Made by a program: the position numbers and the translations under genes
The notes under the pieces: generated by a model
Seen by the model: the letters and a program-made list of their open reading frames with translations, nothing else
Database searches by the model: none
What the model was told of the DNA's origin: nothing
Assembly: GCA_965203935.1 (NCBI GenBank)
Contig: OZ241921.1
Coordinates: 839,354 to 903,353 of the forward strand
Reading direction: 5' to 3'
From: Bdellovibrionales bacterium
GTDB lineage: Bacteria; Bdellovibrionota; Bdellovibrionia; Bdellovibrionales; UBA1609
Length of the DNA stretch: 64,000 bases
Part shown: positions 1 to 63,531 of the stretch, in pieces
How the letters are laid out: the number at the start of each line of letters is the position of its first letter
Numbering within the stretch: the stretch's first letter is position 1

Positions 1-5
1 GCCGG

Positions 6-278
6 GTGCCGGATAAAATTCGAAAAAATCGTGGCACAGACGGTTTTTTTCATGAAACGAAAAACAGGCTTTTTTATATGATATATAAACCTGATCTAAA
101 ATTCCTGCAAAGTAATGATTCCGCTTTAAACGGCGATCGCATGGAAAGAATAGCCAAACAAGCGCTCAAAAAAAAGAAAAAAGCTGTCGTATATGCCTCT
201 CATAAGTTTGTGGGGCAAAAAGAGCTGACTCAAAACGGCATTGTATTTTGCAGCCTCCCATACGGAATTTTAAAATGA
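6..278 (+). CDS. hypothetical protein, probably the 3' end of a gene that starts before the window
   Basis: ORF abuts window start with a non-ATG first codon (gtg at 6) and no stop upstream, so the frame probably continues beyond the window. Lysine-rich with no recognisable motif. Confidence 0.25.
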   Translation: MPDKIRKNRGTDGFFHETKNRLFYMIYKPDLKFLQSNDSALNGDRMERIAKQALKKKKKAVVYASHKFVGQKELTQNGIVFCSLPYGILK

Positions 279-316
279 TCACAACAAAATTATACCTTTA
301 TTGAAAGGGCTGTATA

Positions 317-1087: not shown

Positions 1088-1183
1088 AAAAACAGCGAAA
1101 GATTTTGGTAAAATGAAATATACAAATCATTATTAAAGCATAAAAATATACCTCATGAATAAATAACAATGGAAATGTAAAGT

Positions 1184-3748: not shown

Positions 3749-6490
3749 TCATTGTTGGGGGTAATGGTCTGTAGCTCCTAATGAGTATAACAGGCTGACT
3801 AGTTGGTGCTGGTCGTACATTTCAGCTATTTTCAAGACCTTCTTCCAACGATGATCCTTGAGATCTATATCAGCTCCTCTTCTGATCAACAGTTCGATTG
3901 CTTTTATATGCCTCATTCTTACGGCCTCCGTTAAGGCCGTCCACCCATCATCATTCTTGATATTTATATCCGCTCCTCTATCGATCAACAGTTCGATTGT
4001 TATTACTGGATCCTTTTTTGCTGGATCCTTGTCTGCTATTACAGCGAACATCAAAGCTGTGTGCCCTGCCGAGCGAGTTCTGTAATTTACATCAGCTCCG
4101 CTGTCGATCAGGAGTCTGACTGTTTCTGTATGGCCTTCGTATGCGGCCTCCATTAAGGCTGTCCTCCCCCGGTGATAGTCGTCATTTACATCAGCTCCGC
4201 TGTCGATCAGGAGTCTGACTGTTTCTGTACGGCCTTTTCTTGCGGCTAATATCAAGGCCGTAACCTTATAATGATCCCTGGCGTGTATATCAGCTCCTCT
4301 ATTGATCAAGAATCTGACTGATTCTGTACGGCCTTCGCTTGCGGCCTCCATTAAGGCTGTTCTCCCTTCCTCATTTTTGTAGTCTATATAAACCCCTCTA
4401 TCGAGCAACAGTGTGAGGAAGCTGGTACTCTGTTCGTTTCTTGCGAAATCAATCAACATAGCGCCTTGATTCAAAACCCGGCTCCAAGGGGAATCTAAAA
4501 TTTGCTTAAGCTGAGACAGATCCCGGGCTGATGCTATTTCATTTTCAGTAAGCTTTGTTATAAACTCTTTTCTGTAACCTACAGCGTTCTTCCAGTTGCT
4601 CATTTCTCCTATTAAAGCCTCTTTTTCTTTTTCTGAAAATAAAGATGCTTTTTCCTCTAAAAATGAAATATGCCGTGTTGTCTTTTGCGGTGGCTCTATT
4701 GTCAGAGAAAACTCTATTAAAGTGTAAAAAGCCTTCTTTCTTACTTTAAAGGAAAAATCTTTATGTCGCATAACAAAGTTCAGATGATTATCCACATACT
4801 GATCTGACAAATTAAGCTCCTTTATCTGTCTCATAGTAAGAAGATTATTTAAAAATTGTATCTGATCTTGATTGATTGTGGATTTTTCCAAAAGCAACAC
4901 AGGCTCGTATAAAGAGAGAATACTTAATTCGGGGTGGACTTTTCTAAGTGCGGGAATCTCCCCAGGGCTTATTTTAACTCCCCCTAAGGGCACAGCCTCA
5001 AACTTCAAAAGCTGTAGCCGGCTGTAGGCTCTGGAATAACCTGTCGCTGTATATAATAAGTTTTTATACTCATGCTCATGCGGTTTAAAGTTGTTAAGGA
5101 TTATTGAGAGATCAGGCAGAATTTTCCTTCCCACATAATCACTCACCAAAGCCTCATTGGAAAGTCCGTTTAGGTCTCCCACATCCTTTGGCAGGGCCAA
5201 TACATAGCCTTGTTCTTTTAAGCTTAGATAAATCCCCTGTAACACGGCATTAAGCTTTTGCGGTTCTATATTCTGAATTTTATCCACAAAAGCGGTTTTT
5301 ACTGTCAGGCCCTTTGGGCTTTGAGCTTCCCCCAAAACTAAAGTGACATGGCCTGAGGATTCATGACGGCTGTTTGTCAAAGTGAAGTACAAAAAATTAG
5401 GATCCAAAGCCGTCTCAAAATAAGTATTGGTGGCACAGTCTCCACTAAGGCAAGATCTAAAAGGCGACTCCTGAATGGAAAGGGGCCTTAGTCTTAACAC
5501 TTCTGTTCCTCTAACAGCAGTATCCGGCTGATTTTGAATCTCCTCTGTGATTTGAGTTAAATATTTTGTTTTATCCGGTATTTTGGCCTTAAAGTGTGCT
5601 TTAAGCTCTGCAAAATGCCCGGTAAAGCCCAGTTCAAAAGCCAAAATATCCTGTTCGTTTAAAATACTGCGCAAAGCGTTTAAGCTTTCATGTGGGTCTT
5701 TGCTTTTTAAAAGCTCCACCCAAGTTTTATTTCCAAAGCCTGCGGTATGAATTAAATCCGCTATAACCTGAGAAATGTTTTGAATAATTTTTTGACGGGA
5801 CTCACGGGATTCGTAGGATTCATGGGAGAAATGAATAATATCTTTGATGGAGGAGTCAGCTTCTGCTGTTTCTAAAGAATGTCTTATCTTTTCCAAAGCT
5901 TTGTATAAGGCAATAGTTCTTTCCCGGTAAGGCTTTGAGTCATCTTTTATAAAATCGCGAAGTTTTTTATTTAAAGCTGTGCTGTCCAAATAGGCTGTAA
6001 GATCTTTATTGCGCTTTTTCCTAAGAGCCTTTTTTTCCTCTTTGCTTAAAGAAGAGTCTTCTATCTTGCTGAATCCCAGTGTTTTAGCCCAAAAGCCCAA
6101 GTTTGCCTCCACCTGAAACAGGCTGTTTCGTAATCTGGAGCTTTCGTTTCGGAAAGAGGAAATAAAGTCTTTAAGACTGTTAGGTGTTTCTTTTTTTGTT
6201 ACAGTAAACTCCAGAATTTGCTCTCTTACAATCAGCTTGGAAAGCTCAGGATATTGGTTTAAGATATTTAGGACATCCTGTAAGGAATGAAATCTTACAA
6301 CATCTCTCGGATAAGGGGTTTTGTTTGTGAGATAGAGTTTAAAGAGCGGGTCTTGCCCTTTACTTAAAGCGAGCTGTTTGGTCATGGCCTCATAAAAGGA
6401 ATCCGGATCAGAAAAGGCTTCTTCACAAATATTTGCATAAGCCGAGCCAACAGCAAAAATAAAAACAGCTATAAAAGCGCGCATAATCAT
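3749..6490 (-). CDS. secreted ankyrin-repeat protein, paralogue 1 (large conserved N-domain plus about 7 C-terminal ANK repeats)
   Basis: Signal peptide MIMRAFIAVFIFAVGSAYA. The C-terminus has repeated G.TALM.AA..GH.E.V.LLI..GADVN units typical of ankyrin repeats. It is 86-90% identical over most of its length to the gene at 7387-9912. Confidence 0.75.
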   Translation of the reverse strand: MIMRAFIAVFIFAVGSAYANICEEAFSDPDSFYEAMTKQLALSKGQDPLFKLYLTNKTPYPRDVVRFHSLQDVLNILNQYPELSKLIVREQILEFTVTKKETPNSLKDFISSFRNESSRLRNSLFQVEANLGFWAKTLGFSKIEDSSLSKEEKKALRKKRNKDLTAYLDSTALNKKLRDFIKDDSKPYRERTIALYKALEKIRHSLETAEADSSIKDIIHFSHESYESRESRQKIIQNISQVIADLIHTAGFGNKTWVELLKSKDPHESLNALRSILNEQDILAFELGFTGHFAELKAHFKAKIPDKTKYLTQITEEIQNQPDTAVRGTEVLRLRPLSIQESPFRSCLSGDCATNTYFETALDPNFLYFTLTNSRHESSGHVTLVLGEAQSPKGLTVKTAFVDKIQNIEPQKLNAVLQGIYLSLKEQGYVLALPKDVGDLNGLSNEALVSDYVGRKILPDLSIILNNFKPHEHEYKNLLYTATGYSRAYSRLQLLKFEAVPLGGVKISPGEIPALRKVHPELSILSLYEPVLLLEKSTINQDQIQFLNNLLTMRQIKELNLSDQYVDNHLNFVMRHKDFSFKVRKKAFYTLIEFSLTIEPPQKTTRHISFLEEKASLFSEKEKEALIGEMSNWKNAVGYRKEFITKLTENEIASARDLSQLKQILDSPWSRVLNQGAMLIDFARNEQSTSFLTLLLDRGVYIDYKNEEGRTALMEAASEGRTESVRFLINRGADIHARDHYKVTALILAARKGRTETVRLLIDSGADVNDDYHRGRTALMEAAYEGHTETVRLLIDSGADVNYRTRSAGHTALMFAVIADKDPAKKDPVITIELLIDRGADINIKNDDGWTALTEAVRMRHIKAIELLIRRGADIDLKDHRWKKVLKIAEMYDQHQLVSLLYSLGATDHYPQQ

Positions 6491-7386: not shown

Positions 7387-9912
7387 TCAAAGAATGTCCG
7401 CCCTCGCCCCCCATTGATCCTTGGCCTCTGTATCAGCTCCTTCGTCAATCAACAGTCTGACTGTTTCTATATGGCCTGCGATTGCGGCCTCCATCAAAGC
7501 CGTGCGCCCCGACTTATCCTTAGCGTTTATATCAGCTCCTTCGTTAATCAACAGTCTGATTGTTTCTATATGGCCTTCGCTTGCGGCCTCCATCAAAGCC
7601 GTGCGCCCCGATTTATCCTTAGCGTTTATATCAGCTCCTTCGTTAATCAACAGTCTGACTGTTTCTATACGGCCTGCGATTGCGGCTTTCATCAAGGCTG
7701 TTTTTCCCTGTTCATCCTTGGCGTTTATATCAGCTCCTCTGTTAATTAATATTCTGACTGTTTCTATATGGCCAAGCATTGTGGCCACCATCAAGACTGT
7801 TCTTCCTGTCTCATCTTTGTAGTCTATATAGGTCCCTCTATCCAAGAGCAGTGTAAGAAAGTTGATGTCCTGTTTGTTGTATATGAGATAAGTCCACATA
7901 ACCCTTGGATCCAAAATCTGATTCCAAGGGGAATCTAAAATTTGCTTAAACTGAGACAGATCCTGGGCTGATGTTATTTCATTGTCAGTAAGCTTCGTTA
8001 TAAACTCTTTTCTGTAACCCACAGCGTTTTTCCAGTTGCTCATTTCTCCTATTAAAGCCTCTTTTTCTTTTTCTGAAAATAAAGATGTTTTTTCCTCTAA
8101 AAATGAAATATGCCGTGTTGTCTTTTGCGGTGGCTCTATTGTCAGAGAATACTCTATCAGAGAATATTCTATCAGAGAATACTCTATTAAAATGTAAAAG
8201 GCCTTCTTTCTTACTTTAAAGGAAAAATTTTTGTTTTGCATAACAAAGTTCAGATGATTATCCACATACTGATCTGACAGGTTAAGCTCCTTTATCTGTC
8301 TCATAGTAAGAAGATTATTTAAAAATTGTATCTGATCTTCATCTTTTGTGGATTTTTCCAAAAGCAACACAGGCTCGTATAAAGAGAGAATACTTAATTC
8401 AGGGTGGGCTTTTCTAAGTGCGGGAATCTCCCCAGGGCTTATTTTAACTCCCCCTAAGGGCACAGCCTCAAACTTCAAAAGCTGTAGCCGGCTGTAGGCT
8501 CTGGAATAACCTGTCTCTGCATATAATAAGTCTTTATACTTATGCTCATGCAGTTTAAAATCGTTAAGGTTTTTTGAGAGATCAGGCAAAATTTCCCTTC
8601 CCACATAATCACGCACTGAAGCCTCATTGGAAAGTCCGTTTAGGTCTCCCACATCCTTTGGCAGGGCCAGTATATAGCCTTGTTCCTTAAGGCTTACACT
8701 AATTCCCTGTAGCACGGCCTTAAGCTTTTGCGGTTCTATATCCTGAATTTTATCCACAAAAGCGGTTTTGACTGTCAGGCCCTTTGGGGTTTGAGCTTCC
8801 CCCAGCGCTAAAGTGACATGGCCTGAGGATTCATGACGGCTGTTTGTCAAAGTAAAGTACAAAAAATTAGGATCCAAAGCCGTCTCAAAATAAGTATCGG
8901 TGGCACAGTCTCCACTAAGGCAAGATCTAAAAGGCGACTCTTGAATGGAAAGTGGCCTTAGTCTTAAAACTTCTGCTCCTCTAACAGCAGTATCCGGCTG
9001 ATTTTGAATCTCCTCTGTGATTTGAGTTAAATATTTTGTTTTATCCGGTATTTTGGCCTTAAAGTGTGCTTTAAGCTCTGCAAAATGCCCGGTAAAGCCC
9101 AGTTCAAAAGCCAAAATATCCTGTTCGTTTAAAATACTGCGCAAAGCGTTTAAGCTTTCATGTGGGTCTTTGCTTTTTAAAAGCTCCACCCAAGTTTTGT
9201 TTCCAAAGCCTGCGGTATGAATTAAAACCGCCATGACTTGAGAAATATTTTGAATAATATCTTTGGTGGAGGAGTCAGCTCCTGCTGTTTCTAAAGAATG
9301 TCTTATCTTTTCCAAAGCTTTGTATAAGGCGACAGTTCTTTCCCGGTAAGGCTTTGAGTCATCTTTTATAAAATCGCGAAGTTTTTTATTTAAAGCTGTG
9401 CTGTCCAAATAGGCTGTAAGATCTTTATTGCGCTTTTTCCTAAGAGCCTTTTTTTCCTCTTTGCTTAAAGAAGAGTCTTCTATCTTGCTGAATCCCAGTG
9501 TTTTAGCCCAAAAGCCCAAGTTTGCCTCCACTTGAAACAGGCTGTTTCGCAATCTGGAGCTTTCGTTTCGGAAAGAGGAAATAAAGTCTTTAAGACTGTT
9601 AGGTGTTTCTTTTTTTGTTACAGTAAACTCCAGAATTTGCTCTCTTACAATCAGCTTGGAAAGCTCAGGATATTGGTTTAAGATATTTAGGACATCCTGT
9701 AGGGAATAATCAGTGTCTCTTTGGTAAGGGGTTTTGTTTATGAAATAGAGTTTAAAGAGTGGTTCCTGCCCTTCCTTTAAAACAAGCTGTTTGGTCATGG
9801 CCTCATAAAAGGAATCCGGATCAGAAAAGACTTCCTCACAAGGGCCTGTTGCATAAGCTGGAAACAGGTAGCAGAAAAAAAGTACAGCTTTTAAACCGCG
9901 CATAATAATCAT
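7387..9912 (-). CDS. secreted ankyrin-repeat protein, paralogue 2 (tandem duplicate of 3749-6490)
   Basis: The ORF track gives 7387-10146. The start was reassigned to the ATG at 9912 (MIIMRGLKAVLFFCYLFPAYA), which aligns with the signal peptide of paralogue 1. C-terminal ANK repeats are present. It contains an in-frame 15-bp x3 repeat (IEYSL x3) at 8143-8187. Confidence 0.7.
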   Translation of the reverse strand: MIIMRGLKAVLFFCYLFPAYATGPCEEVFSDPDSFYEAMTKQLVLKEGQEPLFKLYFINKTPYQRDTDYSLQDVLNILNQYPELSKLIVREQILEFTVTKKETPNSLKDFISSFRNESSRLRNSLFQVEANLGFWAKTLGFSKIEDSSLSKEEKKALRKKRNKDLTAYLDSTALNKKLRDFIKDDSKPYRERTVALYKALEKIRHSLETAGADSSTKDIIQNISQVMAVLIHTAGFGNKTWVELLKSKDPHESLNALRSILNEQDILAFELGFTGHFAELKAHFKAKIPDKTKYLTQITEEIQNQPDTAVRGAEVLRLRPLSIQESPFRSCLSGDCATDTYFETALDPNFLYFTLTNSRHESSGHVTLALGEAQTPKGLTVKTAFVDKIQDIEPQKLKAVLQGISVSLKEQGYILALPKDVGDLNGLSNEASVRDYVGREILPDLSKNLNDFKLHEHKYKDLLYAETGYSRAYSRLQLLKFEAVPLGGVKISPGEIPALRKAHPELSILSLYEPVLLLEKSTKDEDQIQFLNNLLTMRQIKELNLSDQYVDNHLNFVMQNKNFSFKVRKKAFYILIEYSLIEYSLIEYSLTIEPPQKTTRHISFLEEKTSLFSEKEKEALIGEMSNWKNAVGYRKEFITKLTDNEITSAQDLSQFKQILDSPWNQILDPRVMWTYLIYNKQDINFLTLLLDRGTYIDYKDETGRTVLMVATMLGHIETVRILINRGADINAKDEQGKTALMKAAIAGRIETVRLLINEGADINAKDKSGRTALMEAASEGHIETIRLLINEGADINAKDKSGRTALMEAAIAGHIETVRLLIDEGADTEAKDQWGARADIL

Positions 9913-31267: not shown

Positions 31268-31280
31268 GCCAAGCTTATGT

Positions 31281-31496
31281 AGTAGCCCGTGAACAACCTC
31301 TGTCCTATTAGTTTTCAGCAGGCAAAGGCTTAAGCTTGTTCGTGACGGAATAAGTAGTCGGGTGTGATAAAGTGCCCCTTAAGCATTTTTGTCCAAAGTC
31401 CGTGCCGTGAGGGTCCAAGGTACTCCGTCCCGAAACGGTGCGGACTTTGGACAAAAACAGCTAAAGAGCAAGGGTTTTTCACGGACCACTAAGTAG
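31281..31496. repeat. mosaic palindromic repeat cluster R2 (one hairpin unit interrupted in its loop by a second junction-bounded unit)
   Basis: The stem ggcaggcaaaggcttaagc plus loop ttgttcgtgacggaata is followed by the inserted junction agtagtcgggtgtgataaag. A second unit follows: ttgtccaaagtccgtgc-[cgtgagggtccaaggtactccgtcccgaaacgg]-tgcggactttggacaa. It ends with tttttcacggaccactaagtag. Confidence 0.75.
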
Positions 31497-31621: not shown

Positions 31622-32377
31622 GTGATGCTCAGTTTTGGAACCATTATAGCCATTCTGGCTTTTCTGCTGTTTTCCTGCTTTAAAATTCTGCCGGAATGGC
31701 AAAGGGGCCTTGTCCTTAGATTCGGCCGCTTTGTGGGTATTCGCGGCCCCGGGCTTATCATCCTGATTCCAGGTGTGGAAAGATTGATCCGGGTGGACAC
31801 CCGCACCATCACTATGGACATTCCCCCGCAGGATATCATTACACTGGACAATGTGAGCCTTAAAGTAAACGCCGTACTCTACTACCGCATCACCGATCCG
31901 GAAAAAGCCATCACCAAAGTGGAGGATTTTCACTTTGCCACCGCTCAGTCGGCGCAAACCACTTTGCGCTCCACCTTGGGGCAGTACCAGATGGATGATC
32001 TGCTCTCTCAAAGAGACAAAATCAACCACACACTTCAAGAGATTTTGGATCGCGACACAGAGCCTTGGGGCATTAAAATCTCCAAAGTGGAGGTTAAACA
32101 TATTGACCTGCCCAAGGAAATGCAAAGGGCTATGGCCCGTCAGGCGGAGGCGGAAAGAGAGCGCCGGGCCAAAGTCATCAGCGCGGAAGGGGAGTTTCAA
32201 AGGGCGGAAAAACTAAAAGACGCTTCAAAGGTTATTTCCTCCACCCCCGCCGCCATTCAGCTGGCCTATCTTCAAGCTTTAAACGAAATTTCCAGCGAAG
32301 GGGCTACAACCATTGTGTTCCCCATCCCCATGAATCTGCTGGAGGCCTTTAAAAAAAGCCAAAACCCTGATAATTAG
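31622..32377 (+). CDS. SPFH/band-7 (stomatin/prohibitin-like) membrane protein
   Basis: N-terminal TM helix followed by ILPEWQRGLVLRFGRFVG...ITMDIPPQDIITLDNVSLKVNAVLYYRITDPEKAI, typical of stomatin-family proteins. RBS aaggagag precedes the start. Confidence 0.8.
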   Translation: MMLSFGTIIAILAFLLFSCFKILPEWQRGLVLRFGRFVGIRGPGLIILIPGVERLIRVDTRTITMDIPPQDIITLDNVSLKVNAVLYYRITDPEKAITKVEDFHFATAQSAQTTLRSTLGQYQMDDLLSQRDKINHTLQEILDRDTEPWGIKISKVEVKHIDLPKEMQRAMARQAEAERERRAKVISAEGEFQRAEKLKDASKVISSTPAAIQLAYLQALNEISSEGATTIVFPIPMNLLEAFKKSQNPDN

Positions 32378-32697
32378 TCGGGCGTGAAAAAGGCCGGCTT
32401 TCATAGTTGGCATAAGCAAAACCCCGCCTTGTTCGAGACGGAGTACCTTGGACTCTCACCGGCGGGGTTTTGCTTATGCCACAAAGAACAAGGGTTTTTC
32501 ACGGGCTACTAATTAGTCGTCCGTAAAAAACCTCTTTAAATTATGTCTCAAAAGCAAAGCCAAGCGAAGAGGGTCCAAGTGTAAAACTGGAAGTCGCCTG
32601 TGCGACTTCCAGCCCGAATGAGCTTGGACTTTGCTTTTGAGACCAGCAGTTTAGTAGCCTTTTTCACGCCCCACTAATTAGTCGTCCGTAAAAAACC
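32370..32697. repeat. mosaic palindromic repeat cluster R3 (two hairpin units, three junctions), abutting IS copy 1
   Basis: The junction taattagtcgggcgtgaaaaagg is followed by gcataagcaaaaccccgcc-[ttgttcgagacggagtaccttggactctcaccg]-gcggggttttgcttatgc and a junction. A second unit carries a nested small hairpin ctggaagtcgcctgtgcgacttccag, followed by a junction. It ends in the GC hairpin ccccccttgggggg plus a T-rich tract. Confidence 0.8.
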
Positions 32698-32728
32698 TCA
32701 GCTCCCCCCTTGGGGGGATTTTCTTTGT

Positions 32729-34686
32729 CCCGACTTCGACACAACACTATGAGTTAAAAAATATTTTGAGGTTTTTTTAGACCAGCCGGGTTGTTTTTGT
32801 TTGGTTTTGAGTGGTAAAATCAGTAAAAATTAAAGTTGTGTTCCCGACCCCGACCTTTACTTCCTCGATCTCTTCTGGAACAGTAAAAACATGTTTATCA
32901 AGGTCACTGAAAAAATCTCAAGCAAAAACCGAAAAATTAAATCTTTCCGGATTATGGAATCGGTACGCAAAGGCTCAAAAACCATTCATAAAACAGTGCG
33001 CTTTGTGGGATCCTCCACGAACCCGGATATCATCAAGTCTTTGGAACAGATATCTCATAATCTGATCGTAAAGCTCAGCAATGACCGACAGCCCGCCCTT
33101 CCCGGCATGGCCAAAGTCATCTACAGCAAAGAATCTCAGTACATAAACAAAAAACCAAAACAACAGAAGAAAAAACAAAAGCCTGTTTCTATCTTCTCCC
33201 TTAAAAAGCCACAGGAAACAGCACGCATCCAGCACGGCATTAAAGGAGTATGCGGGGCTGTCTATGAACAGTTAGGCTTTCATACCCTCATACAAGACAC
33301 CAACAAAGATCAACAATGGAACAACATCTTAAAATACTGTGTCCTTGCCAGAGTGGCCCACCCGGATTCCAAAAGAAAAACAGTAGACACTTTGGCAGAG
33401 GATTTTAACGAGACTGTTCCTTTGGAAAAAATGTATCGCATGATGGACAGGCTTTATCCACGCATAGAAAAAGCAAAAGACATGGCGGCCAAAAACACCC
33501 TGAGCCTGTTTAACCAAGAAGTGGATATTCTTTTCTTTGATGTCACCACCCTTTACTTTGAAAGCTTTGAAGAAGACGATACAAGACAGTTCGGCTTCAG
33601 CAAAGATAAAAAGTTCAACGAAACACAAGTGGTCTTAGCCCTTATCACCAACCAAGAAGGTCATCCCCTAAGCTATGAGCTGTTTCCCGGAAGCACAAGC
33701 GAAGGATCCACCCTTATTGCCACAGTTCAGAGATTAAAACAAAGATTTACAGTCAAAAACGCCGTATTGGTGGCCGACAGAGCCATGTTTAATGAGCAAA
33801 ACCTTACACTCATGGAGGAAGAGGGGATTCAATATGTGGTGTCCGCCAAGTTAAAGTCCCTGCCCAAAAGCAAGAAAGATGAGATTTTAGACAAAAACTT
33901 AAAATCTTCCACTGTCTCAGAAGACCCACACAGGGTAAAGATAAAAGAGCTTGAGTATAAACAAAGAAGACTCATTATAAGCCACTCAGAAAAAAGAGCC
34001 AAAAAGGATGAGGCGGACAGACTAAGACTCATTAAAAGACTGATGAAAAAAGTAAAGAACAAGCAAATCCCCATAAAAAGCCTTATCCCCAATCATGGCA
34101 CCAAAAAATACATCACAGTTCAAAAAACCAAAGCTACACTCAATGAACAAAAAATAGCTGAAGACAGCCGTTGGGACGGCCTGCATGGACTTATTACCAA
34201 CATGAAAGATAAGCCCCCCCAAGAACTCCTCACCCGATACAGACAGCTCTGGAAGATAGAAGAGGCTTTTCGTGTGTGCAAACACACTCTTAAGATGAGA
34301 CCCATTTACCACTGGAAGAGGAAAAGAATCGAGGCTCATATTGCTATATGCTTCTTGGCTTACTCGCTTTCTTACACTATGAAACACAGAATGGAGCAAA
34401 GAGGACTGAACTTCAGTATCCGAAAGATGAGAGAGATTTTAAAAAGAGATCAATACAGTATTATAGAGGATGCAAATAAAAATCTCTATCGTATGCCCTC
34501 TAAATCCACAGAACCGATACAGGCTATATACGAGGCTTTGGGGCTTAAAAGAACTTCTCAATTTATTCCTTTTTCCTAAGCCCTGTTAAACTCCCTTCTT
34601 AAATGTTCTTACAAGATGTGTGGCCCCAAGAATTTATAAGTTATTGATATCACTCACTTAATGCCTTGCGTTGTGTCGAAGTCGGG
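32729..34686 (+). mobile_element. IS4/IS1634-family insertion sequence, copy 1 (1958 bp, about 19-bp terminal inverted repeats cccgacttcgacacaacac)
   Basis: IRL cccgacttcgacacaacac at 32729. IRR gcgttgtgtcgaagtcggg ends at 34686. A single 562-aa transposase ORF lies inside. Confidence 0.8.
32891..34579 (+). CDS. DDE transposase, IS4 superfamily (IS1634-like)
   Basis: LFFDVTTLYFES (D1, DxT..yFE), VLVADRAMFN (D2) and YRQLWKIEEAFRVCK (Y-2-R-3-E-6-K signature). The 562-aa length is typical of the IS1634 group. Confidence 0.75.
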   Translation: MFIKVTEKISSKNRKIKSFRIMESVRKGSKTIHKTVRFVGSSTNPDIIKSLEQISHNLIVKLSNDRQPALPGMAKVIYSKESQYINKKPKQQKKKQKPVSIFSLKKPQETARIQHGIKGVCGAVYEQLGFHTLIQDTNKDQQWNNILKYCVLARVAHPDSKRKTVDTLAEDFNETVPLEKMYRMMDRLYPRIEKAKDMAAKNTLSLFNQEVDILFFDVTTLYFESFEEDDTRQFGFSKDKKFNETQVVLALITNQEGHPLSYELFPGSTSEGSTLIATVQRLKQRFTVKNAVLVADRAMFNEQNLTLMEEEGIQYVVSAKLKSLPKSKKDEILDKNLKSSTVSEDPHRVKIKELEYKQRRLIISHSEKRAKKDEADRLRLIKRLMKKVKNKQIPIKSLIPNHGTKKYITVQKTKATLNEQKIAEDSRWDGLHGLITNMKDKPPQELLTRYRQLWKIEEAFRVCKHTLKMRPIYHWKRKRIEAHIAICFLAYSLSYTMKHRMEQRGLNFSIRKMREILKRDQYSIIEDANKNLYRMPSKSTEPIQAIYEALGLKRTSQFIPFS

Positions 34687-34943: not shown

Positions 34944-36892
34944 CCTGACTTCGACACAACACTATGAGTTAAAAAATATTTTGAGGTTTTTTTAGACCAG
35001 CCGGGTTGTTTTTGTTTGGTTTTGAGTGGTAAAATCAGTAAAAATTAAAGTTGTGTTCCCGACCCCGACCTTTACTTCCTCGATCTCTTCTGGAACAGTA
35101 AAAACATGTTTATCAAGGTCACTGAAAAAATCTCAAGCAAAAACCGAAAAATTAAATCTTTCCGGATTATGGAATCGGTACGCAAAGGCTCAAAAACCAT
35201 TCATAAAACAGTGCGCTTTGTGGGATCCTCCACGAACCCGGATATCATCAAGTCTTTGGAACAGATATCTCATAATCTGATCGTAAAGCTCAGCAATGAC
35301 CGACAGCCCGCTCTTTCCGGCATGGCCAAAGTCATCTACAGCAAAGAATCTCAGTACATAAACAAAAAACCAAAACAACAGAAGAAAAAACAAAAGCCTG
35401 TTTCTATCTTCTCCCTTAAAAAGCCACAGGAAACAGCACGCATCCAGCACGGCATTAAAGGAGTATGCGGGGCTGTCTATGAACAGTTAGGCTTTCATAC
35501 CCTCATACAAGACACCAACAAAGATCAACAATGGAACAACATCTTAAAATACTGTGTCCTTGCCAGAGTGGCCCACCCGGATTCCAAAAGAAAAACAGTA
35601 GACACTTTGGCAGAGGATTTTAACGAGACTGTTCCTTTGGAAAAAATGTATCGCATGATGGACAGGCTTTATCCACGCATAGAAAAAGCAAAAGACATGG
35701 TGGCCAAAAACACCCTGAGCCTGTTTAACCAAGAAGTGGATATTCTTTTCTTTGATGTCACCACCCTTTACTTTGAAAGCTTTGAAGAAGACGATACAAG
35801 ACAGTTCGGCTTCAGCAAAGATAAGAAGTTCAACGAAACACAAGTGGTCTTAGCCCTTATCACCAACCAGCAAGGTCATCCCCTAAGCTATGAGCTGTTT
35901 CCCGGAAGCACAAGCGAAGGATCCACCCTTATTGCCACAGTTCAGAGATTAAAACAAAGATTTACAGTCAAAAACGCCGTATTGGTGGCCGACAGAGCCA
36001 TGTTTAATGAGCAAAACCTTACACTCATGGAGGAAGAGGGGATTCAATATGTGGTGTCCGCCAAGTTAAAGTCCCTGCCCAAAAGCAAGAAAGATGAGAT
36101 TTTAGACAAAAACTTAAAATCTTCCACTGTCTCAGAAGACCCACACAGGGTAAAGATAAAAGAGCTTGAGTATAAACAAAGAAGACTCATTATAAGCCAC
36201 TCAGAAAAAAGAGCCAAAAAGGATGAGGCGGACAGACTAAGACTCATTAAAAGACTGATGAAAAAAGTAAAGAACAAGCAAATCCCCATAAAAAGCCTTA
36301 TCCCCAATCATGGCACCAAAAAATACATCACAGTTCAAAAAACCAAAGCCACACTCAATGAACAAAAAATAGCTGAAGACAGCCGTTGGGACGGCCTACA
36401 TGGACTTATTACCAACATGAAAGATAAGCCCCCCCAAGAACTCCTCACCCGATACAGACAGCTCTGGAAGATAGAAGAGGCTTTTCGTGTGTGCAAACAC
36501 ACTCTTAAGATGAGACCCATTTACCACTGGAAGAGGAAAAGAATCGAGGCTCATATTGCTATATGCTTCTTGGCTTACTCGCTTTCTTACACTATGAAAC
36601 ACAGAATGGAGCAAAGAGGACTGAACTTCAGTATCCGAAAGATGAGAGAGATTTTAAAAAGAGATCAATACAGTATTATAGAGGATGCGAACAAAAATCT
36701 TTATCGTATGCCCTCTAAATCCACAGAACCGATACAGGCCATATACGAGGCTTTGGGGCTTAAAAGAGTGTCTGACTTTGTATCCGGTTCCTGAAGTTTT
36801 ACCGGACTTCAGTCTTAAAATGTGTGCCCCCGTAAAAACTCATAAGTATATGATATCACTCACTTAATGCCTTGCATTGTGTCGAAGTCGGG
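34944..36892 (+). mobile_element. IS4/IS1634-family insertion sequence, copy 2 (1949 bp)
   Basis: IRL cctgacttcgacacaacac at 34944. IRR gcattgtgtcgaagtcggg ends at 36892. Near-identical to copy 1 except the last ~100 bp before the IRR, which also changes the transposase C-terminus. Confidence 0.8.
35106..36794 (+). CDS. DDE transposase, IS4 superfamily (IS1634-like), copy 2
   Basis: About 99% identical to 32891-34579 until the last 10 codons (..LGLKRVSDFVSGS versus ..LGLKRTSQFIPFS). Confidence 0.75.
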   Translation: MFIKVTEKISSKNRKIKSFRIMESVRKGSKTIHKTVRFVGSSTNPDIIKSLEQISHNLIVKLSNDRQPALSGMAKVIYSKESQYINKKPKQQKKKQKPVSIFSLKKPQETARIQHGIKGVCGAVYEQLGFHTLIQDTNKDQQWNNILKYCVLARVAHPDSKRKTVDTLAEDFNETVPLEKMYRMMDRLYPRIEKAKDMVAKNTLSLFNQEVDILFFDVTTLYFESFEEDDTRQFGFSKDKKFNETQVVLALITNQQGHPLSYELFPGSTSEGSTLIATVQRLKQRFTVKNAVLVADRAMFNEQNLTLMEEEGIQYVVSAKLKSLPKSKKDEILDKNLKSSTVSEDPHRVKIKELEYKQRRLIISHSEKRAKKDEADRLRLIKRLMKKVKNKQIPIKSLIPNHGTKKYITVQKTKATLNEQKIAEDSRWDGLHGLITNMKDKPPQELLTRYRQLWKIEEAFRVCKHTLKMRPIYHWKRKRIEAHIAICFLAYSLSYTMKHRMEQRGLNFSIRKMREILKRDQYSIIEDANKNLYRMPSKSTEPIQAIYEALGLKRVSDFVSGS

Positions 36893-43869: not shown

Positions 43870-44190
43870 GACGACTACTTTAGTCGGGGGTGAAAAACCC
43901 TTGCTCTTTAGCTGTTTTTGTCCAAAGTCCGCACCGTTTCGGGCTGAAAGCTCTGAAAGGCAAGCCTTTGCCTTTCAGTATAGGGCTTTCAGTTTTACGC
44001 AAAAACAAAGAAGAACGGAAGGCCAAATTGTTGGCCTTCCGCCTCACGGCACGGACTTTGGACAAAAATGCTAAGGGGGCACTTGTTTACGGACGACTAC
44101 TTTAGTCTTAAGCGGTGAGAGTTAAATCGTATTCCGTCTCGAACAAGCTTGGACTTTGCTTTTGAGACATAATTTAAAAGGGTTTTCACA
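43870..44190. repeat. mosaic palindromic repeat cluster R4 (hairpin unit with two nested small hairpins in its loop, plus a chimeric second unit)
   Basis: The junction acgactactttagtcgggggtgaaaaacc is followed by ttgtccaaagtccgcac cgtttcggg. The loop carries [ctgaaagctctgaaaggcaagcctttgcctttcagtatagggctttcag ttttacgc ... gaaggccaaattgttggccttccgc] ctcacggc acggactttggacaa. A junction follows, then cttaagc-[ggtgagagttaaatcgtattccgtctcgaa]-caagcttggactttgc. Confidence 0.75.
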
Positions 44191-44946: not shown

Positions 44947-45097
44947 AATAATTAGTCGCCCGTGATAAACACCTGTAAATTATGTCTCAAAAGCAAAGCC
45001 AAGCGGTGAGGGTCCAAGGTATTCCGTCCCGAACAAGCTTGGCTTTGCTTTTGAGACCATGCAGTTTAGTAGCCTTTTTCACGCCCGACTAATTAAG
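44947..45097. repeat. mosaic palindromic repeat cluster R5
   Basis: The junction taattagtcgcccgtgataaa is followed by tctcaaaagcaaagccaagc-[ggtgagggtccaaggtattccgtcccgaacaa]-gcttggctttgcttttgagac. It ends ...agtttagtagcctttttcacgcccgactaatta. Confidence 0.8.
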
Positions 45098-45324: not shown

Positions 45325-45466
45325 TTAATTAGTCGGGGGTGAAAAACCTTGCTCTTTAGCTGTTTTTGTCCAAAGTCCGCACCGTTTCGGGACGGAATAC
45401 CTTGGACCCTCACGGCACGGACTTTGGACAAAAATGCTCAAGGGGGTACTTTTTCACGGGCTATTA
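45325..45466. repeat. mosaic palindromic repeat cluster R6
   Basis: The junction gtttaattagtcgggggtgaaaaacc is followed by ttgtccaaagtccgcac-[cgtttcgggacggaataccttggaccctcacgg]-cacggactttggacaa. It ends ctttttcacgggctattaaaaaag. Confidence 0.8.
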
Positions 45467-45564
45467 AAAAAGTTTTATTGCCCGGCCACTGTATGTAAAT
45501 TTTACACCTTCACAAATAAAGCTTGCCGGATTTGTGCTTTTTATGTATTAAGTCCGGTACAATG

Positions 45565-49952: not shown

Positions 49953-50774
49953 ATGAACAAAGCGGACACAAGAAACCAATTGAATGATCTGACAGGCAAA
50001 GAATGGCTGAAACTCACCAAAAGTTGGTGGTTGAGTGAAGCATGCAAAGAGGATAAATTTGCTTTTCAGCATCCGGCCCCTTTTTTGATAAAAGACATTA
50101 AAAAGCTCATATCCCTTTTTACAAAAAAGGATATGGTGGTGTTGGATCCTTTTAACGGACTGGGGACCACTTTAACAGCCTCAGCCATGACAGGCAGAAA
50201 AGGCATAGGGATTGACCTTAATAAAGATTATTGTGATATGACAAAAAAAAGGCTAAAAGAGTTGAACCTGATAAAAGGTCAAAAAGTTATTTGTGGCGAT
50301 TCCATGCAGGAAATTAAAAAAATAAAAAAGCCTGTTGATTATTGTGTCACCTCCCCGCCTTATCACAATATTTTAAGGAATAACGGAAAGGGATTAAGAG
50401 AAAAAAAACAAGGGAGAAGAAATGGAGCCAGAACTGTTATTGAATGTTACTCAGAAGATAAAAGGGATTTGGGTAATCAAAACAGCTATGATGATTTTTT
50501 GCAGATGTTTGGCCGCATAATACAGGCTGTTTATAAAAAACTGAAAAACAAAAGGTATGCCAGCATCATTATCAGTGATTTTACAGTGGACAAAAAAGAA
50601 AAATGTGTGCAAGGGGATATTGTTCGTGTTGTCAAAAAATCCGGCTTCGAGTTTTGTGGCACAGTGGCCCTTCTTCAGAATCATAAGCCCCTTTACCCTT
50701 TTGGCTACCCTTTTGCCTATAAAATAAATCATCAGCATCAAAATATTATCACTTTTCGCAAAAACAGCTTTTAG
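49953..50774 (+). CDS. DNA methyltransferase, N6-adenine/N4-cytosine family
   Basis: FQHPAPFLIKDIKKLISLF...VVLDPFNGLGTTLTASAMTGRKGIGIDLNKDY covers motif X and motif I (HP..fP...DPFxGxGTT...GR..iGiE). CVTSPPYHNIL is motif IV ((D/N/S)PPY). Motif I precedes motif IV. Confidence 0.75.
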   Translation: MNKADTRNQLNDLTGKEWLKLTKSWWLSEACKEDKFAFQHPAPFLIKDIKKLISLFTKKDMVVLDPFNGLGTTLTASAMTGRKGIGIDLNKDYCDMTKKRLKELNLIKGQKVICGDSMQEIKKIKKPVDYCVTSPPYHNILRNNGKGLREKKQGRRNGARTVIECYSEDKRDLGNQNSYDDFLQMFGRIIQAVYKKLKNKRYASIIISDFTVDKKEKCVQGDIVRVVKKSGFEFCGTVALLQNHKPLYPFGYPFAYKINHQHQNIITFRKNSF

Positions 50775-53969: not shown

Positions 53970-54178
53970 CTAAATAGTCGGGCGTGAAAAAGGCTATTAA
54001 ACTGCTGGTCTGCAAGCAAGTCCAAGCTTGTTCAGGCTGGAAGCCCTACGGATAGGGCTTCCAGTTTTACGAAAAAACAAAGAAGAACGGAAGGCCAAAT
54101 TGCCCACCTATACGCCTTCACCGCTTGGCTTTGCTTTTGAGACATAATTTAAAGGGGTTTTTCACGGGCCATTAAATA
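53970..54178. repeat. mosaic palindromic repeat cluster R7 (hairpin with nested sub-hairpins)
   Basis: The junction ctaaatagtcgggcgtgaaaaaggctattaaactgctggtc is followed by tgcaagcaagtccaagc ttgttcagg [ctggaagccctacggatagggcttccag ttttacg...gaaggccaaattgcccacc...] accg cttggctttgc. It ends ...ggtttttcacgggccattaaatag. Confidence 0.75.
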
Positions 54179-56297: not shown

Positions 56298-56303
56298 AAC
56301 CCA

Positions 56304-56585
56304 CATTAGTCGGGTGTGAAAAAGAACCGTATTGCACTCTCCGCCCGGTTTTTAAAGGGCCGGAGGGTTCAGACAGGCGCCGTTTGGCGATATTTGATTT
56401 TCACGACCATCCTGTTGTTCAAGAAAAGTCCTTTATTTGAGACATGCTGTTTGGCTTGACCAATTTTTAAGTTTATTGTTTCCTGTTTTGCCATTACTCA
56501 AATATCGCCAAAGGCGAACTCACCTCCAGCCCTTTAAAAACCGGGCGGAGACCAAAGTCTGTTTTTCACAGGCGACTACATTAAT
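56304..56585. repeat. mosaic palindromic repeat cluster R8 (junctions flanking a ~240-bp long imperfect hairpin of different sequence)
   Basis: The junction cattagtcgggtgtgaaaaag is followed by long inverted arms (ctctccgcccggtttttaaagggccggagg...gccgtttggcgatatttg // caaatatcgccaaaggcg...cctccagccctttaaaaaccgggcggagac). The end junction gtttttcacaggcgactacattaatg is degenerate. Confidence 0.7.
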
Positions 56586-57384: not shown

Positions 57385-57695
57385 TAATCAGTCGGGCGTG
57401 AAAAAGGCCAGCTTGAGTGGTTCTGTATGCTTTAGCCTTAAGCTCATTCGGGACGGAATACCTTGGACCCTCTTCGCTTGGCTTTGCTTGCAGACATAAT
57501 TTAAAGGGCTTCTTCACGGGCTAATAATTAGTCGCCTGTGAAAAAGCTTCATTTTGTCCTGTTAGTGATGTTGGCAGGCAAAGGCTTAAGCGGTGAGTGT
57601 TAAATCGTATTCCGTCACGAACAAGCTTAAGCCTTTGCCTGCTGAAAACTAATAGGTCAGAGGTTTTTCACGCCCGACTAATTAGTGGCCCGTGA
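57385..57695. repeat. mosaic palindromic repeat cluster R9 (two hairpin units, three junctions)
   Basis: Junction, then gccttaagc-[tcattcgggacggaataccttggaccctcttcg]-cttggctttgcttgc. Next is the junction gggctaataattagtcgcctgtgaaaaag, then ggcaggcaaaggcttaagc-[ggtgagtgttaaatcgtattccgtcacgaacaa]-gcttaagcctttgcctgc. The end junction is gtttttcacgcccgactaattagtggcccgtga. Confidence 0.8.
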
Positions 57696-57717
57696 TACAG
57701 TGTTAAATGGAGAAAAT

Positions 57718-59935: not shown

Positions 59936-60808
59936 ATGATTTTTGTAAATCCTGATATAAACAAAAAACGGCAAAAGTTCAGAAAAGACCTTAAAAGCGG
60001 GAAAACTCTTCGCTTTGTGGGGTCTTTTTCCCCCTTGGTTTCCCGCTTAGTGGAAAGAACAGGCTTTGAGGGGATTTATGTGTCCGGCGCCGTGCTTTCC
60101 AGTGATTTGGCTTTGCCGGATCTGGAGCTGATGACCCTTTCAGAGTTAAGCGGGCGGGGGGGCTTATTATCGGGGGCCTGCGCGCTTCCCGCTTTAGCGG
60201 ACGCAGACACCGGCTTTGGAGGGGCTTTGAACATCGCCCGCACAGTGCAAACATTAGAGCGGGCCGGGTTTTGCGGACTGCACTTGGAAGATCAACAAAG
60301 CCCCAAAAGGTGCGGTCATTTAAACAATAAAAAACTTGTTGATCTTAAACAAATGCAGAAAAAAATTGAAACCGCCCTTAAAGCAAGATCTGACAAGTCC
60401 TTTTTGATCATCGCCCGCACAGACAGCCGGGGGGTGGAGGGTTTAAGCAAGGCTGTTGAGAGGGCAAAAGCTTATATATCCGCCGGTGCGGAGGCGATTT
60501 TTCCCGAAGCTTTGGAAACAAGAGAAGAGTTTGAAACATTTAGGGGGCAGGTGAGGGATGTTCCGCTGATAGCCAATATGACTGAATTTGGAAAGTCAGA
60601 ACTGCTTTCTTTTAAAACTTTGGAGAGCATGGGTTTTAATATTGTGCTTTATCCTGTAACTGTTTGGAGGCTGGCCCTGAAAGCCGTGGAGAAAGGGTTA
60701 AAACATATCGCCTCTGAAGGGCATCAAAAAGATCTGCTGAAGGATATGTTTACGAGAGATGAGCTTTATGATTTGCTGGATTATGACGAATATTCAAAAT
60801 GGGACTAA
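59936..60808 (+). CDS. prpB: 2-methylisocitrate lyase (PEP mutase/isocitrate lyase superfamily)
   Basis: Closely matches the E. coli PrpB pattern: ALPDLE versus GLPDLG, ADADTGFG, NIARTVQ, EDQQSPKRCGH (the KRCGH catalytic motif), IIARTDS, ANMTEFG, VLYPVTVWRL and TRDELYDLLDY. Confidence 0.9.
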   Translation: MIFVNPDINKKRQKFRKDLKSGKTLRFVGSFSPLVSRLVERTGFEGIYVSGAVLSSDLALPDLELMTLSELSGRGGLLSGACALPALADADTGFGGALNIARTVQTLERAGFCGLHLEDQQSPKRCGHLNNKKLVDLKQMQKKIETALKARSDKSFLIIARTDSRGVEGLSKAVERAKAYISAGAEAIFPEALETREEFETFRGQVRDVPLIANMTEFGKSELLSFKTLESMGFNIVLYPVTVWRLALKAVEKGLKHIASEGHQKDLLKDMFTRDELYDLLDYDEYSKWD

Positions 60809-60978
60809 AGAGAGGCATGTGAAAAACCCCTGTAAATTATGTCTCAAAAGCAAAGCCAAGCGGTGAGGGTCCAAGTGTAAAACTGAAAGCCCTATACTTA
60901 GGGCTTCCAGCCCGAACAAGCTTGGACTTTGCTTGCAGACCAGCAGTTTAGTAACCTTTTTCACGGAGGACTAAAGAG
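60805..60978. repeat. mosaic palindromic repeat cluster R10
   Basis: A degenerate junction is followed by tctcaaaagcaaagccaagc-[ggtgagggtccaag tgtaaaa ctgaaagccctatacttagggcttccag cccgaacaa]-gcttggactttgcttgcagac. It ends cagcagtttagtaacctttttcacggaggactaaag. Confidence 0.75.
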
Positions 60979-62183: not shown

Positions 62184-62335
62184 CGAATTAGTCGTTCGTG
62201 AAAAAGGCTGGCTTTCATAATTGGCATAAGCAAAACCCCGCCTTGTTCGGGACGGAATACCTTGGACCCTCACCGCCGGAGTTTTGCTTATGCCACAAAT
62301 AACAAGGGTTTTTTACGGACCGCGAATTAGTCACG
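62184..62335. repeat. mosaic palindromic repeat cluster R11
   Basis: The junction cgaattagtcgttcgtgaaaaagg is followed by gcataagcaaaaccccgcc-[ttgttcgggacggaataccttggaccctcaccg]-ccggagttttgcttatgc. It ends ...ggttttttacggaccgcgaattagtc. Confidence 0.8.
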
Positions 62336-62379
62336 ATCAGAGAAGTCAGCCGCGTCGAATTAGCTCCCCCCTTGGGGGG

Positions 62380-62402
62380 GTGGATGGGGTGGCAGGATTC
62401 GC
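62380..62402 (-). repeat. partial direct repeat of the tRNA-Gln 3' end (about 21-23 bp)
   Basis: ggtggatggggtggcaggattcg repeats 62566-62588 (CCA + acceptor 3' strand + T-arm half) in the same orientation. It is preceded by the GC hairpin agctccccccttggggggg, which is also seen at 32698. Confidence 0.6.
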
Positions 62403-62567
62403 CTGCTATGTTCGTTCGCGTCCGGCTCACTCACGGCGCAGGCCCCCCTCAGTCGCTCATAAAATCATCCAGATTTTATGCCCCGTGCTAACTGCTCCCA
62501 ATAGGTCGCAGTCATCACGGGTCGCTCCTTCGCTTCGAATCCTGCCGGGATTTTTTGTTAGAAAAAA

Positions 62568-62642
62568 TGGATGGGGTGGCAGGATTCGAACCTGCGAATG
62601 ACAGAACCAAAATCTGTTGGCTTACCACTTGCCGACACCCCA
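62568..62642 (-). tRNA. tRNA-Gln (anticodon UUG), CCA encoded
   Basis: The reverse complement gives tggggtg tc ggc aagtggtaa gcc a acaga ttttggt tctgt cattc gcagg ttcgaat cctgc cacccca t cca. It has a U1:A72 first pair (bacterial tRNA-Gln hallmark), UUG at anticodon positions 34-36 and a TTCGAAT T-loop. The D-stem is short (3 bp), so confidence is moderate. Confidence 0.72.
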
Positions 62643-63216: not shown

Positions 63217-63531
63217 ATAATTAGTGGAGCGTGAAAAAGGCTTCCAAGTGTATTGTCTGCAAGCAAAGTCCAAGCTCATTCGGGACGGAATACCTTGGAC
63301 CCTCTTCGCTTGGCTTTGCTTGCAGACATAATTTAAAGGGCTTCTTCACGGACGACTAATTAGTGGCCTGTGAAAAAATGCCCCTTAAGCATTTTTGTCC
63401 AAAGTCCGTGCTGTGAGAGTCCAAGGTACTCCGTCTCGAAACAGTGCGGACTTTGGACAAAAACAGCTAAAGAGCAAGGGTTGTTCACGAGCTACTAATT
63501 AGTGGCCTTTTTCACGCCCGACTAATTAGGC
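63217..63531. repeat. mosaic palindromic repeat cluster R12 (two hairpin units, conserved loop in opposite orientations, four junctions)
   Basis: A junction is followed by tgcaagcaaagtccaagc-[tcattcgggacggaataccttggaccctcttcg]-cttggctttgcttgc and the junction cttcttcacggacgactaattagtggcctgtgaaaaaatg. The next unit is ttgtccaaagtccgtgc-[tgtgagagtccaaggtactccgtctcgaaacag]-tgcggactttggacaa. It ends with a double junction ttgttcacgagctactaattagtggcctttttcacgcccgactaattagg. Confidence 0.8.

Follow-up and report, generated by a model that had tools for sequence, protein, structure and literature searches.

The closest described systems to the repeat analysed here are short intergenic elements of other bacteria. 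QMITE2 of Coxiella burnetii has direct repeats of 7–9 bp, inverted repeats of 23–29 bp and a core of 113–145 bp (PMC10969869). The Correia or NEMIS elements of Neisseria include a 155-bp form with a central IHF site suggested to help transposition; the CIR repeats of Caulobacter and Brucella expose a conserved GANTC in the terminal loop; and the ERIC or IRU repeats of enterobacteria are intergenic imperfect palindromes of ~127 bp whose RNA structure is thought to matter (PMC2229807). Here, we describe a hairpin-bearing repeat family in a 64,000-nucleotide stretch of a Bdellovibrionales genome (contig OZ241921.1, positions 839,354 to 903,353; hereafter the window), part of a 2.03-Mb circular contig with ordinary chromosomal genes (ClpP, NusB, SodB, citrate synthase, spermidine synthase). 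It is a new, lineage-specific family of a described class, the non-autonomous DNA transposons known as MITEs, short for miniature inverted-repeat transposable elements.

Like QMITE2, the family is small, non-coding and intergenic, with inverted ends, 7–9-bp direct repeats and predicted long stem-loops, and its many copies sit in a small genome with genes for ankyrin-repeat proteins. It differs in having shorter ends (14 nt) that are less conserved than the centre and several unrelated interiors per end type, and no parent insertion sequence was identified. With Correia elements it shares a conserved, functional-looking motif in the middle of a hairpin; those elements, however, duplicate TA and have 24-bp inverted repeats and a duplex IHF centre, whereas here there is no IHF consensus and the central pairing co-varies. 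CIR repeats are comparable in carrying a short cross-species motif at the hairpin tip of an intergenic repeat, but they resemble MITEs in part only, being without clear inverted ends or duplications, and their motif is a known methylase site, whereas this one has no known reader. The effect of ERIC depends on mRNA orientation, in contrast to the lack of orientation bias found here, and its duplication and ends differ as well. REP/REPIN sequences are likewise dispersed intergenic hairpins that multiply within a genome, yet their palindromic stems of 20–40 bp are conserved and their spacer variable, they have no inverted ends or duplication, and they need a Y1 HUH enzyme; the present family is the reverse on each point. 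Finally, attC sites also keep structure while sequence varies, act as a folded single strand and have conserved mismatches, comparable to the GG/GG or CC/CC in the folded ends described below. They lie, however, between cassettes near an integrase, with core sites at the base (GTTRRRY) and a variable apex, whereas our units are transposon-like, with a conserved apex. A general scan found no integrase among the window open reading frames (ORFs) scanned, although the attC core-site pattern was not itself searched, and the units lie between housekeeping genes. The family is thus new but of a known kind; less usual are a centre more conserved than the ends, near-random co-varying stems and several cargos per end type.

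Each hairpin forms the interior of a non-coding unit of ~145 bp. Copies are bracketed, ~45 nt out on each side, by GTGAAAAA ... TTTTTCAC with TAATTAG-like sequence outside, and both ends of every full unit carry an imperfect 14-nt terminal inverted repeat reading inward T[C/A]G[GG/CC]CGTGAAAAA (also written as the pattern T[CA]GSSCGTGAAAAA). Located by regular expression and then with a sequence-only covariance model of the end, 34 ends were found in the window, all within 12 intergenic clusters and none elsewhere. They pair into 15 full units (145–281 bp), with six pieces left that are solo or truncated; the total, ~2.7 kb, is ~4% of the window. From the outside inward, a unit consists of the duplication, the 14-nt end, a ~20-nt arm imperfectly complementary to its partner, a 17–21-bp stem and a 27-nt apical module, followed by the mirror half; no ORF of at least 80 aa lies inside any unit.

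The flanking direct duplication measures 7–9 bp, mostly 8, with the consensus CTAATTAG. Because this consensus target is palindromic, only deviant copies can separate a direct from an inverted repeat. All informative, non-palindromic duplications are direct, with direct identity exceeding inverted identity: 8/8 versus 6/8 in R11, 8/8 versus 4/8 in R10, 9/9 versus 6/9 in R4, and 8/8 versus 2/8 in a related-genome copy (L009a) flanked by TTATTTAT/TTATTTAT (8/8); a further related-genome copy, L017a, has CTAACCAA/CTAACTAA (7/8). Adjoining units are separated by exactly one 8-bp copy (R3a/b/c, R9a/b/c, R12a/b/c), the spacing that repeated insertion into a regenerated target would give, and the loops of neighbouring units within arrays point in opposite directions in every case. 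Small size, inverted ends, direct duplications, absence of coding capacity and many dispersed copies together identify the units as MITEs. The direct, rather than inverted, non-palindromic flanks led us to reject site-specific recombination at a palindromic attB-like site (CTAATTAGTCG-GG-CGACTAATTAG, crossover at GG). An invertible switch (inverton) was also rejected as the source of flipped interiors, as the search for a promoter found none and transposition is evident from the target duplications; secondary inversion may still occur. A target of the CTAATTAG type contains stop codons on either strand, which places insertions exactly at the ends of genes. Stop codons lie inside the target duplications at a Band-7 gene (TAG, 32370-32377) and a PEP-mutase gene (TAA, 60805-60813). 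Forming arrays and overlapping stop codons and the ends of genes, the units will mislead the assembly and annotation of these genomes.

The hairpin itself was first picked out in a sequence-only reading of the window, at 32406–32478 (gcataagcaaaaccccgcc / 27–30-nt loop / ggcggggttttgcttatgc; letters gttGGCATAAGCAAAACCCCGCC-ttgTTCGAGACGGAGTACCTTGGACTCTCAcc-GGCGGGGTTTTGCTTATGCC), which held that one conserved loop is closed by at least four unrelated, internally complementary stems and that some copies are chimeric. With the flanks printed out, all four complementary stem types were seen at the places given, and the chimeric copies at 57436–57495 and 44100–44160 are both real. The 30-nt motif TTCGRGACGGARTACCTTGGACYCTCACCG has nine matches in the window at three mismatches or fewer and none in 100 dinucleotide shuffles, and the unit at 32371–32515 folds at −65.6 kcal/mol (z = −6.35). 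Among window units, which were ascertained via their ends and not via the loop, between-subfamily identity is 0.56–0.58 in arms and stems (shuffled 0.50 ± 0.06) and 0.89 in the 27-nt loop. The stems are therefore near-random between subfamilies, although not wholly unrelated, since a CAAAG core is common to all, and the conservation of the loop is more than recent copying. The "loop" is partly paired and not invariant throughout: the conserved core is its 5' half, TTCRGGACGRAATAC, whereas its 3' half varies and its apex can be replaced; we call it the apical motif where this matters.

That stem differences are compensatory beyond chance was upheld in a set of 31 distinct hairpins drawn from the window and from the related genome OZ251471.1. 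RNAalifold returned one long helix and a small helix within the loop, with compensated double changes in 17 of 23 pairs. A 4-bp loop-closing helix was then added, giving 27 tested pairs; 88.8% of cells were paired, as against 70.4% in column shuffles (0 of 500 reached the observed value), both-side changes occurred in 20 of the 27 pairs (1 of 500 shuffles) and the covariation score was 0.50 versus 0.17 shuffled, although copies of a subfamily are kin and the column-shuffle control overstates their independence. Shifting the 3' partner by 1–3 columns lowered pairing to 24–54%. Subfamilies B, C and D are present both in the window and in a relative with 89% identical citrate synthase (L026), at 78–89% identity, and nucleotide identity between the two is 80% over 4.5 kb of syntenic genes. 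Between these genomes, all three changed stem pairs of subfamily B are compensated (GGCA/TGCC to GGCC/GGCC; AAGC/GCTT to AAGA/TCTT; CGCC/GGCG to CGGC/GCCG), as are both changed pairs of subfamily C (GTCC/GGAC to GTCT/AGAC; CCGT/ACGG to CTGT/ACAG). Inside the loop, the R/Y positions of a 3-bp helix, GNG/CN'C, co-vary: loop positions 5 and 23 pair as G-C, A-T or T-A, and positions 4 and 24, next to them, as G-C or A-T. Selection for pairing, or an equivalent process, is well supported. The pairing of the stem and the 3-bp inner helix, together with the sequence TTCRGGACGRAATAC, is kept in every subfamily and in three genomes, and arms and stems have otherwise diverged almost to randomness. The idea of a constrained nucleic acid structure, as opposed to neutral decay, fits the chimeric copies and this covariation and loop conservation, which persist across genomes with citrate synthases only 79–89% identical; what it had missed is the class of element, a MITE, in which the hairpin is not free-standing.

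Across the three genomes, the invariant core of the apical motif is its 5' half, TTCRGGACGRAATAC, whereas the 3' half varies between CTTGGAC (S1) and GATTTAAC or GATTTCAC (S2), and CCCTCA has become TTTTCA in two L026 copies. The loop alleles, GAG..CTC or GGG..CCC with either A12 or G12, are found in each of the four possible combinations, and in subfamilies A, B and C. Larger hairpin modules replace the apex in four window units and three related-genome units, and the basal TTCGGG ... CCCTCA stays in place. In R3b and R10 the module is one hairpin plus TTTTACA and in R4 and R7 two hairpins with an A-rich linker, and three OZ251471.1 copies share a conserved 75-nt apical insert although their outer stems are different in each. 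The motif is identical in OZ251471.1, whose citrate synthase is only 79% identical to that of the window; this invariance is partly built in, the search that found 27 of the copies there having required identity at 21 of the 27 loop positions, and the unbiased data comprise only six free positions (1 change in 162 nt) and four by-catch copies. The 5' half TCGGGACGGAATA (for example 32432–32446) resembles the G-type end TCGGGCGTGAAAA (TCGGG.CG.GAA) at ~10 of 14 positions with one gap; the end model scores no loop, and the likeness may be chance. TTCAGGACGG may also resemble the reverse complement of the Neisseria uptake sequence. We disfavour a separate origin of the loop as a mini-element entering unrelated palindromes, since its hosts all have the same ends and a CAAAG core in the stem, and individual subfamilies are retained across species.

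Unrelated interiors are also found between the ends and duplications of the family: in R8 of the window, in the two L026 copies of family E (5600–5745 and 11348–11465, one with a 7/8 duplication) and in three units, including those at 8592–8862 and 20046–20222, of a further relative (L028). Family E and one L028 unit have no rod fold beyond their paired ends (z = −2.3 and −0.5). Because elements with these ends and unrelated interiors also move, the ends suffice and the transposase does not need the hairpin. The hairpin, apical motif (core TTCRGGACGRAATAC) included, is thus a cargo module under selection, and mobilisation by those ends does not require it. In the lineage that carries it, the module must be retained on some other account. 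For the same reason, the suggestion that it is a transposase recognition hairpin did not hold up: MITEs with these ends but without hairpin or loop are mobile too, and the hairpin is unlikely to be the recognition element. Full hairpin units outnumber the others by 14 to 1 in the window and by 5 to 2 in L026, making the hairpin lineage the most successful. Among the other interiors, that of R8 has long internal inverted repeats, that of family E opens with GTCATTCCCGCG.. and the L028 units hold a terminator-like hairpin, AAAAAGCC..GGCTTTTT. A second short palindromic repeat, GTCATTCCCGCGAAAGCGGGAATC, stands beside hairpin units, sometimes in tandem (OZ251471.1 flanks L019a, L021a, L023b and L024a); the word GTCATTCCCGCG within repeats of this type is also the one that opens the family E interior.

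From the inverted ends and the fixed-length direct duplication we infer a DDE-type cut-or-copy transposase acting in trans. An IS4-like transposase beside R3 was considered as the parent and rejected, its ends (CCCGACTTCGACACAAC) differing from the MITE ends. The window has two IS4-like copies (32729–34686 and 34944–36892), each with a 562-aa DDE_Tnp_1 ORF and CCCGACTTCGACACAAC ends; the first truncates the MITE end at 32675–32700, and the second is flanked by a ~170-bp repeat taken from the gene at ~37015 (its first codons and the region upstream); the arrangement looks like a tandem duplication of insertion sequence and target.

Table 1. Units, partial units and solo ends of the MITE family in the window.
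Feature	Coordinates	Strand	Description
Solo right-end repeat	19778-19798	-	Abuts unit R1
R1	19793-19937	+	Subfamily A, GAG..CTC loop allele; duplication CTAATTAG 8/8
R2a	31276-31350	+	Subfamily D left half; truncated inside the apical motif where R2b begins
R2b	31351-31495	-	Subfamily C; direct duplication ATAAGTAG/CTAAGTAG 7/8
R3a	32371-32515	+	Subfamily B; hairpin 32406-32478, 27-nt apical motif 32432-32458; duplication left ATAATTAG (32371 inside; includes the Band-7 gene TAG stop), right CTAATTAG
R3b	32510-32680	-	Subfamily A, 'M' form; one CTAATTAG copy common with R3a; at the apex, ACGGAATAC replaced by hairpin CTGGAAGTCGC..GCGACTTCCAG + TTTTACA
Solo left end TAATTAGTCGTCCGTAAAAAACCTC	32675-32700	+	Truncated beside IS4-like element
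R4	43877-44103	+	Subfamily C, 'L' form; 9-bp direct duplication CTACTTTAG/CTACTTTAG
Partial chimeric unit	44095-44163	-	S2 loop variant TTCGAGACGGAATACGATTTAACTCTCACC
R5	44949-45095	-	Subfamily A
R6	45326-45470	+	Subfamily C
R7	53971-54178	+	Subfamily A, 'L' form; direct duplication CTAAATAG/TTAAATAG 7/8
R8	56303-56583	.	Same ends, 8-bp direct duplication CCACATTA/CTACATTA; unrelated interior, no apical motif
R9a	57385-57530	+	Chimeric: left arm D-like, right arm subfamily A; stem therefore not complementary
R9b	57525-57684	-	Subfamily D; loop variant S2, inner co-varying pair T-A
Solo left-end repeat	57679-57699	+	–
R10	60806-60977	-	Subfamily A, 'M' form; direct duplication CTAAAGAG 8/8, left copy overlaps the PEP-mutase TAA stop
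R11	62185-62329	+	Subfamily B; non-palindromic direct duplication CGAATTAG 8/8, informative
R12a	63218-63362	+	Subfamily A
R12b	63357-63501	-	Subfamily C, GAG..CTC allele; one CTAATTAG copy common with R12a
Solo right-end repeat	63502-63528	-	–

The family is patchy within one uncultured clade. Searching GTDB (one genome per species) for the loop core returned only OZ251471.1, a 1.998-Mb metagenome-assembled genome of a Bdellovibrionales bacterium, with 27 exact matches; a hairpin model added four copies at the same loci, for at least 31 in all. We then compared seven relative loci, each around a citrate synthase homologue. The family is dense in L026, with at least seven units in 21 kb; L028 (citrate synthase 82% identical) has the same ends with other interiors; OZ251471.1 has a single solo end at this locus (L027); and four other relatives (72–83%) show neither ends nor hairpin in 14–21 kb each. 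Insertion sites are non-orthologous: in one spacer, the window and L026 have different subfamilies, each with its own duplication, and the spacer between citrate synthase and tRNA-Gln is filled in the window and empty in L026, with no base-precise empty site alignable. The lineage is split into at least four old subfamilies in the window, with more in a relative. A scan of JGI metagenomes for the loop gave no matches and one of IMG/VR for the core gave two, both without a flanking hairpin and therefore attributed to chance. A two-unit query of plasmid and phage collections had no match, and a full-text literature search for the end sequences returned PCR primers only.

How the module might have been kept can be sketched as follows. 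Stacking into arrays, exchange at the loop that gives rise to chimeras, and long-term conservation of motif and pairing are all seen in the sequences; each insertion recreates two target copies, so later insertions stack as arrays with one shared duplication. A trans-acting transposase would recognise the ends and make staggered cuts at the palindromic target, and the stem and apical motif would be the cargo of one successful lineage, unneeded by that transposase. A folded single strand, of DNA or RNA, may serve as a cis-acting site read by a protein; such reading would raise the amplification or retention of copies that keep the module, and only intact lineages would keep multiplying. We regard a cis-acting, folded-strand protein-binding site that favours propagation of its lineage as the most likely role of the module, and the account as a whole, a MITE family with a selected cis-acting hairpin cargo, as probable by a narrow measure. 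A bolder reading is that the stem and apical motif (core TTCRGGACGRAATAC, co-varying GNG/CN'C helix) form a hitherto undescribed structured nucleic acid, maintained by selection, with a dedicated trans-acting reader, acting either in a folded-strand step that boosts a DDE-type MITE lineage or on an RNA or single-stranded DNA module recruited by the host at dozens of intergenic sites in several uncultured Bdellovibrionales-type genomes; this we put forward tentatively, as possible but doubtful. In the first case, propagation would include a structure-dependent requirement not described for DDE-type MITEs.

Several observations weigh against a propagation cargo, besides the kinship and ascertainment of copies noted above. 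A cis role in propagation is conjecture, and elements with the same ends but no hairpin move without the module. No autonomous element with these ends was found with the end model in ~400 kb, comprising the window, 192 kb (24 loci) of OZ251471.1 and ~140 kb of six relatives. At end positions 4–5, read inward, one end has GG and the other CC in 12 of 14 classifiable units, which the account leaves unexplained; a folded strand would carry a GG/GG or CC/CC mismatch there. Equally unexplained is that the side of the GG end is uncoupled from the orientation of the interior, even within one subfamily. Last, in 40 of 43 copies the minus strand, as RNA, folds better by ~5 kcal/mol, since a conserved CA/CA internal loop (C.A/A.C) becomes tandem U.G/G.U; this hints at a strand-specific, possibly RNA, constraint that the propagation account does not use.

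This strand bias is one of the points that suggest an alternative, namely that the MITEs have spread around the genome an RNA module with a function for the host, such as a small RNA, a decoy that binds protein or a cis-regulatory structure of untranslated regions, with selection on the RNA fold. Such a module would also fit the covariation, which in the inserted hairpin of the M and L forms includes a series from G-C through G.T to A-T, the three GGA triplets of the apical motif, and an apex that, like that of many RNAs, accepts large structured inserts above a conserved basal junction. Against it, loops are oriented 8 (+) to 7 (−), although cumulative GC skew climbs along the whole window, and the ratio is 4 to 5 in units downstream of plus-strand genes; no promoter-like sites were found in the units, R5 and R6 lie beyond a separate terminator, and copy positions are not conserved between related genomes. 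The lack of orientation bias, promoters and positional conservation argues against a host RNA function tied to neighbouring genes, and selection at the level of the element lineage, or a position-independent function, is favoured. Nor are the numbers of G.U and A.C among the modelled pairs (18 versus 13) significantly skewed. At gathering and permissive thresholds, Rfam 15 passes only two tRNAs in the window and nothing in the units or the long form; when E is relaxed to 10, the unit matches are well under threshold and amount to noise from microRNA-type hairpins, and the OZ251471.1 long form reaches nothing above 11.7 bits. We consider an RNA module unlikely overall. A tRNA-like origin was rejected, since ARAGORN finds two true tRNAs only and, as we read it, TTCGGGA breaks the T-loop rule of A at position 58. 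So was a role as intrinsic terminator or promoter: scans call nothing in the units, and subfamily C has a T-run before the stem and an A-run after it, the wrong way round.

Were the constraint instead on duplex DNA, the conserved centre, with inverted repeats on either side, would be a site for a nucleoid or modification protein that bends or marks the short element, after the models of the Correia IHF site and of the CcrM site in the loop of Caulobacter CIR repeats (precedents in PMC2229807). Orientation independence agrees with this, as does a position central to a 145-bp element that would be too short to synapse its ends without a sharp bend, and two DNA methylase genes lie in the window. 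Yet the IHF consensus WATCAANNNNTTR has 12 matches in the window and none inside units, and a duplex site leaves unexplained why Watson–Crick pairing persists through double changes in the stems and the 3-bp inner helix; we judge it quite improbable. A slightly poorer prospect is that the module has no function, complementarity being maintained by intrastrand template switching or arm-to-arm conversion and loop similarity by recent copying or short conversion tracts. Chimeric units do show exchange at the loop, loop alleles occur in all combinations across subfamilies and the perfect part of the palindrome adjoins the loop, all of which such processes could produce. Recency, however, cannot explain the loop, because the arms stand at random-level identity when the loop is at 0.89, and the same subfamilies have been maintained separately in genomes 80% identical at the gene level. 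Conversion tracts of 19–27 nt without flanking homology would be implausible, and the distal arms are not homogenised. The least credible explanation, to our minds highly improbable, is that the hairpins are substrates of a single-strand HUH transposase, like REP/REPIN with RAYT or palindromes derived from IS200/IS605, as the sequence-only reading had envisaged with its RAYT, IS200 or TnpB-type enzymes. The hairpin shape, and a Y1_Tnp gene in one relative (L028, 12507–12872), are in its favour. But HUH enzymes of IS200/IS605 and RAYT act on hairpins that lack inverted ends and make no target duplications, and elements derived from IS200/IS605 have subterminal hairpins, no terminal inverted repeats or duplication, and insert by a short specific tetra- or pentanucleotide. 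The inverted ends and 8-bp direct duplications found here do not fit such systems, and variable stems around a conserved loop are the reverse of REP/REPIN. None of the 30 window ORFs scanned is a Y1_Tnp, and L028, for all its Y1 gene, has no hairpin copy in 21 kb.

If the cargo module of the propagation account is functional, the family is an unusually clean natural experiment, in which one end type carries several cargos and one cargo keeps a 15–27-nt motif and its helices while its surroundings diverge nearly to randomness, a contrast that holds across genomes whose conserved proteins differ by ~20%. It would let one ask what a MITE gains from an internal structured motif, and motif and covariation model together would give a handle on a protein reader in an uncultured clade.

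Other features of the window concern its genes rather than the family. The methylase genes are part of a restriction-modification-like trio at 1–3736 (methylase, DUF4145 and ResIII helicase) and, for the second, an N6_N4 DNA methylase at 49953–50774. A 29-nt copy of the tRNA-Gln 3' end at 62378–62406 lies ~190 nt from the intact tRNA-Gln (62568–62642), with unrelated sequence between; L026 has the intact tRNA-Gln only, and the window copy may have been left by an element that had integrated at this tRNA. Ankyrin-repeat proteins of the kind found here are typical of host-associated bacteria; two neighbouring genes for such proteins of ~915 aa, at 3749–6490 and 7387–10146, are partly 82–95% identical.

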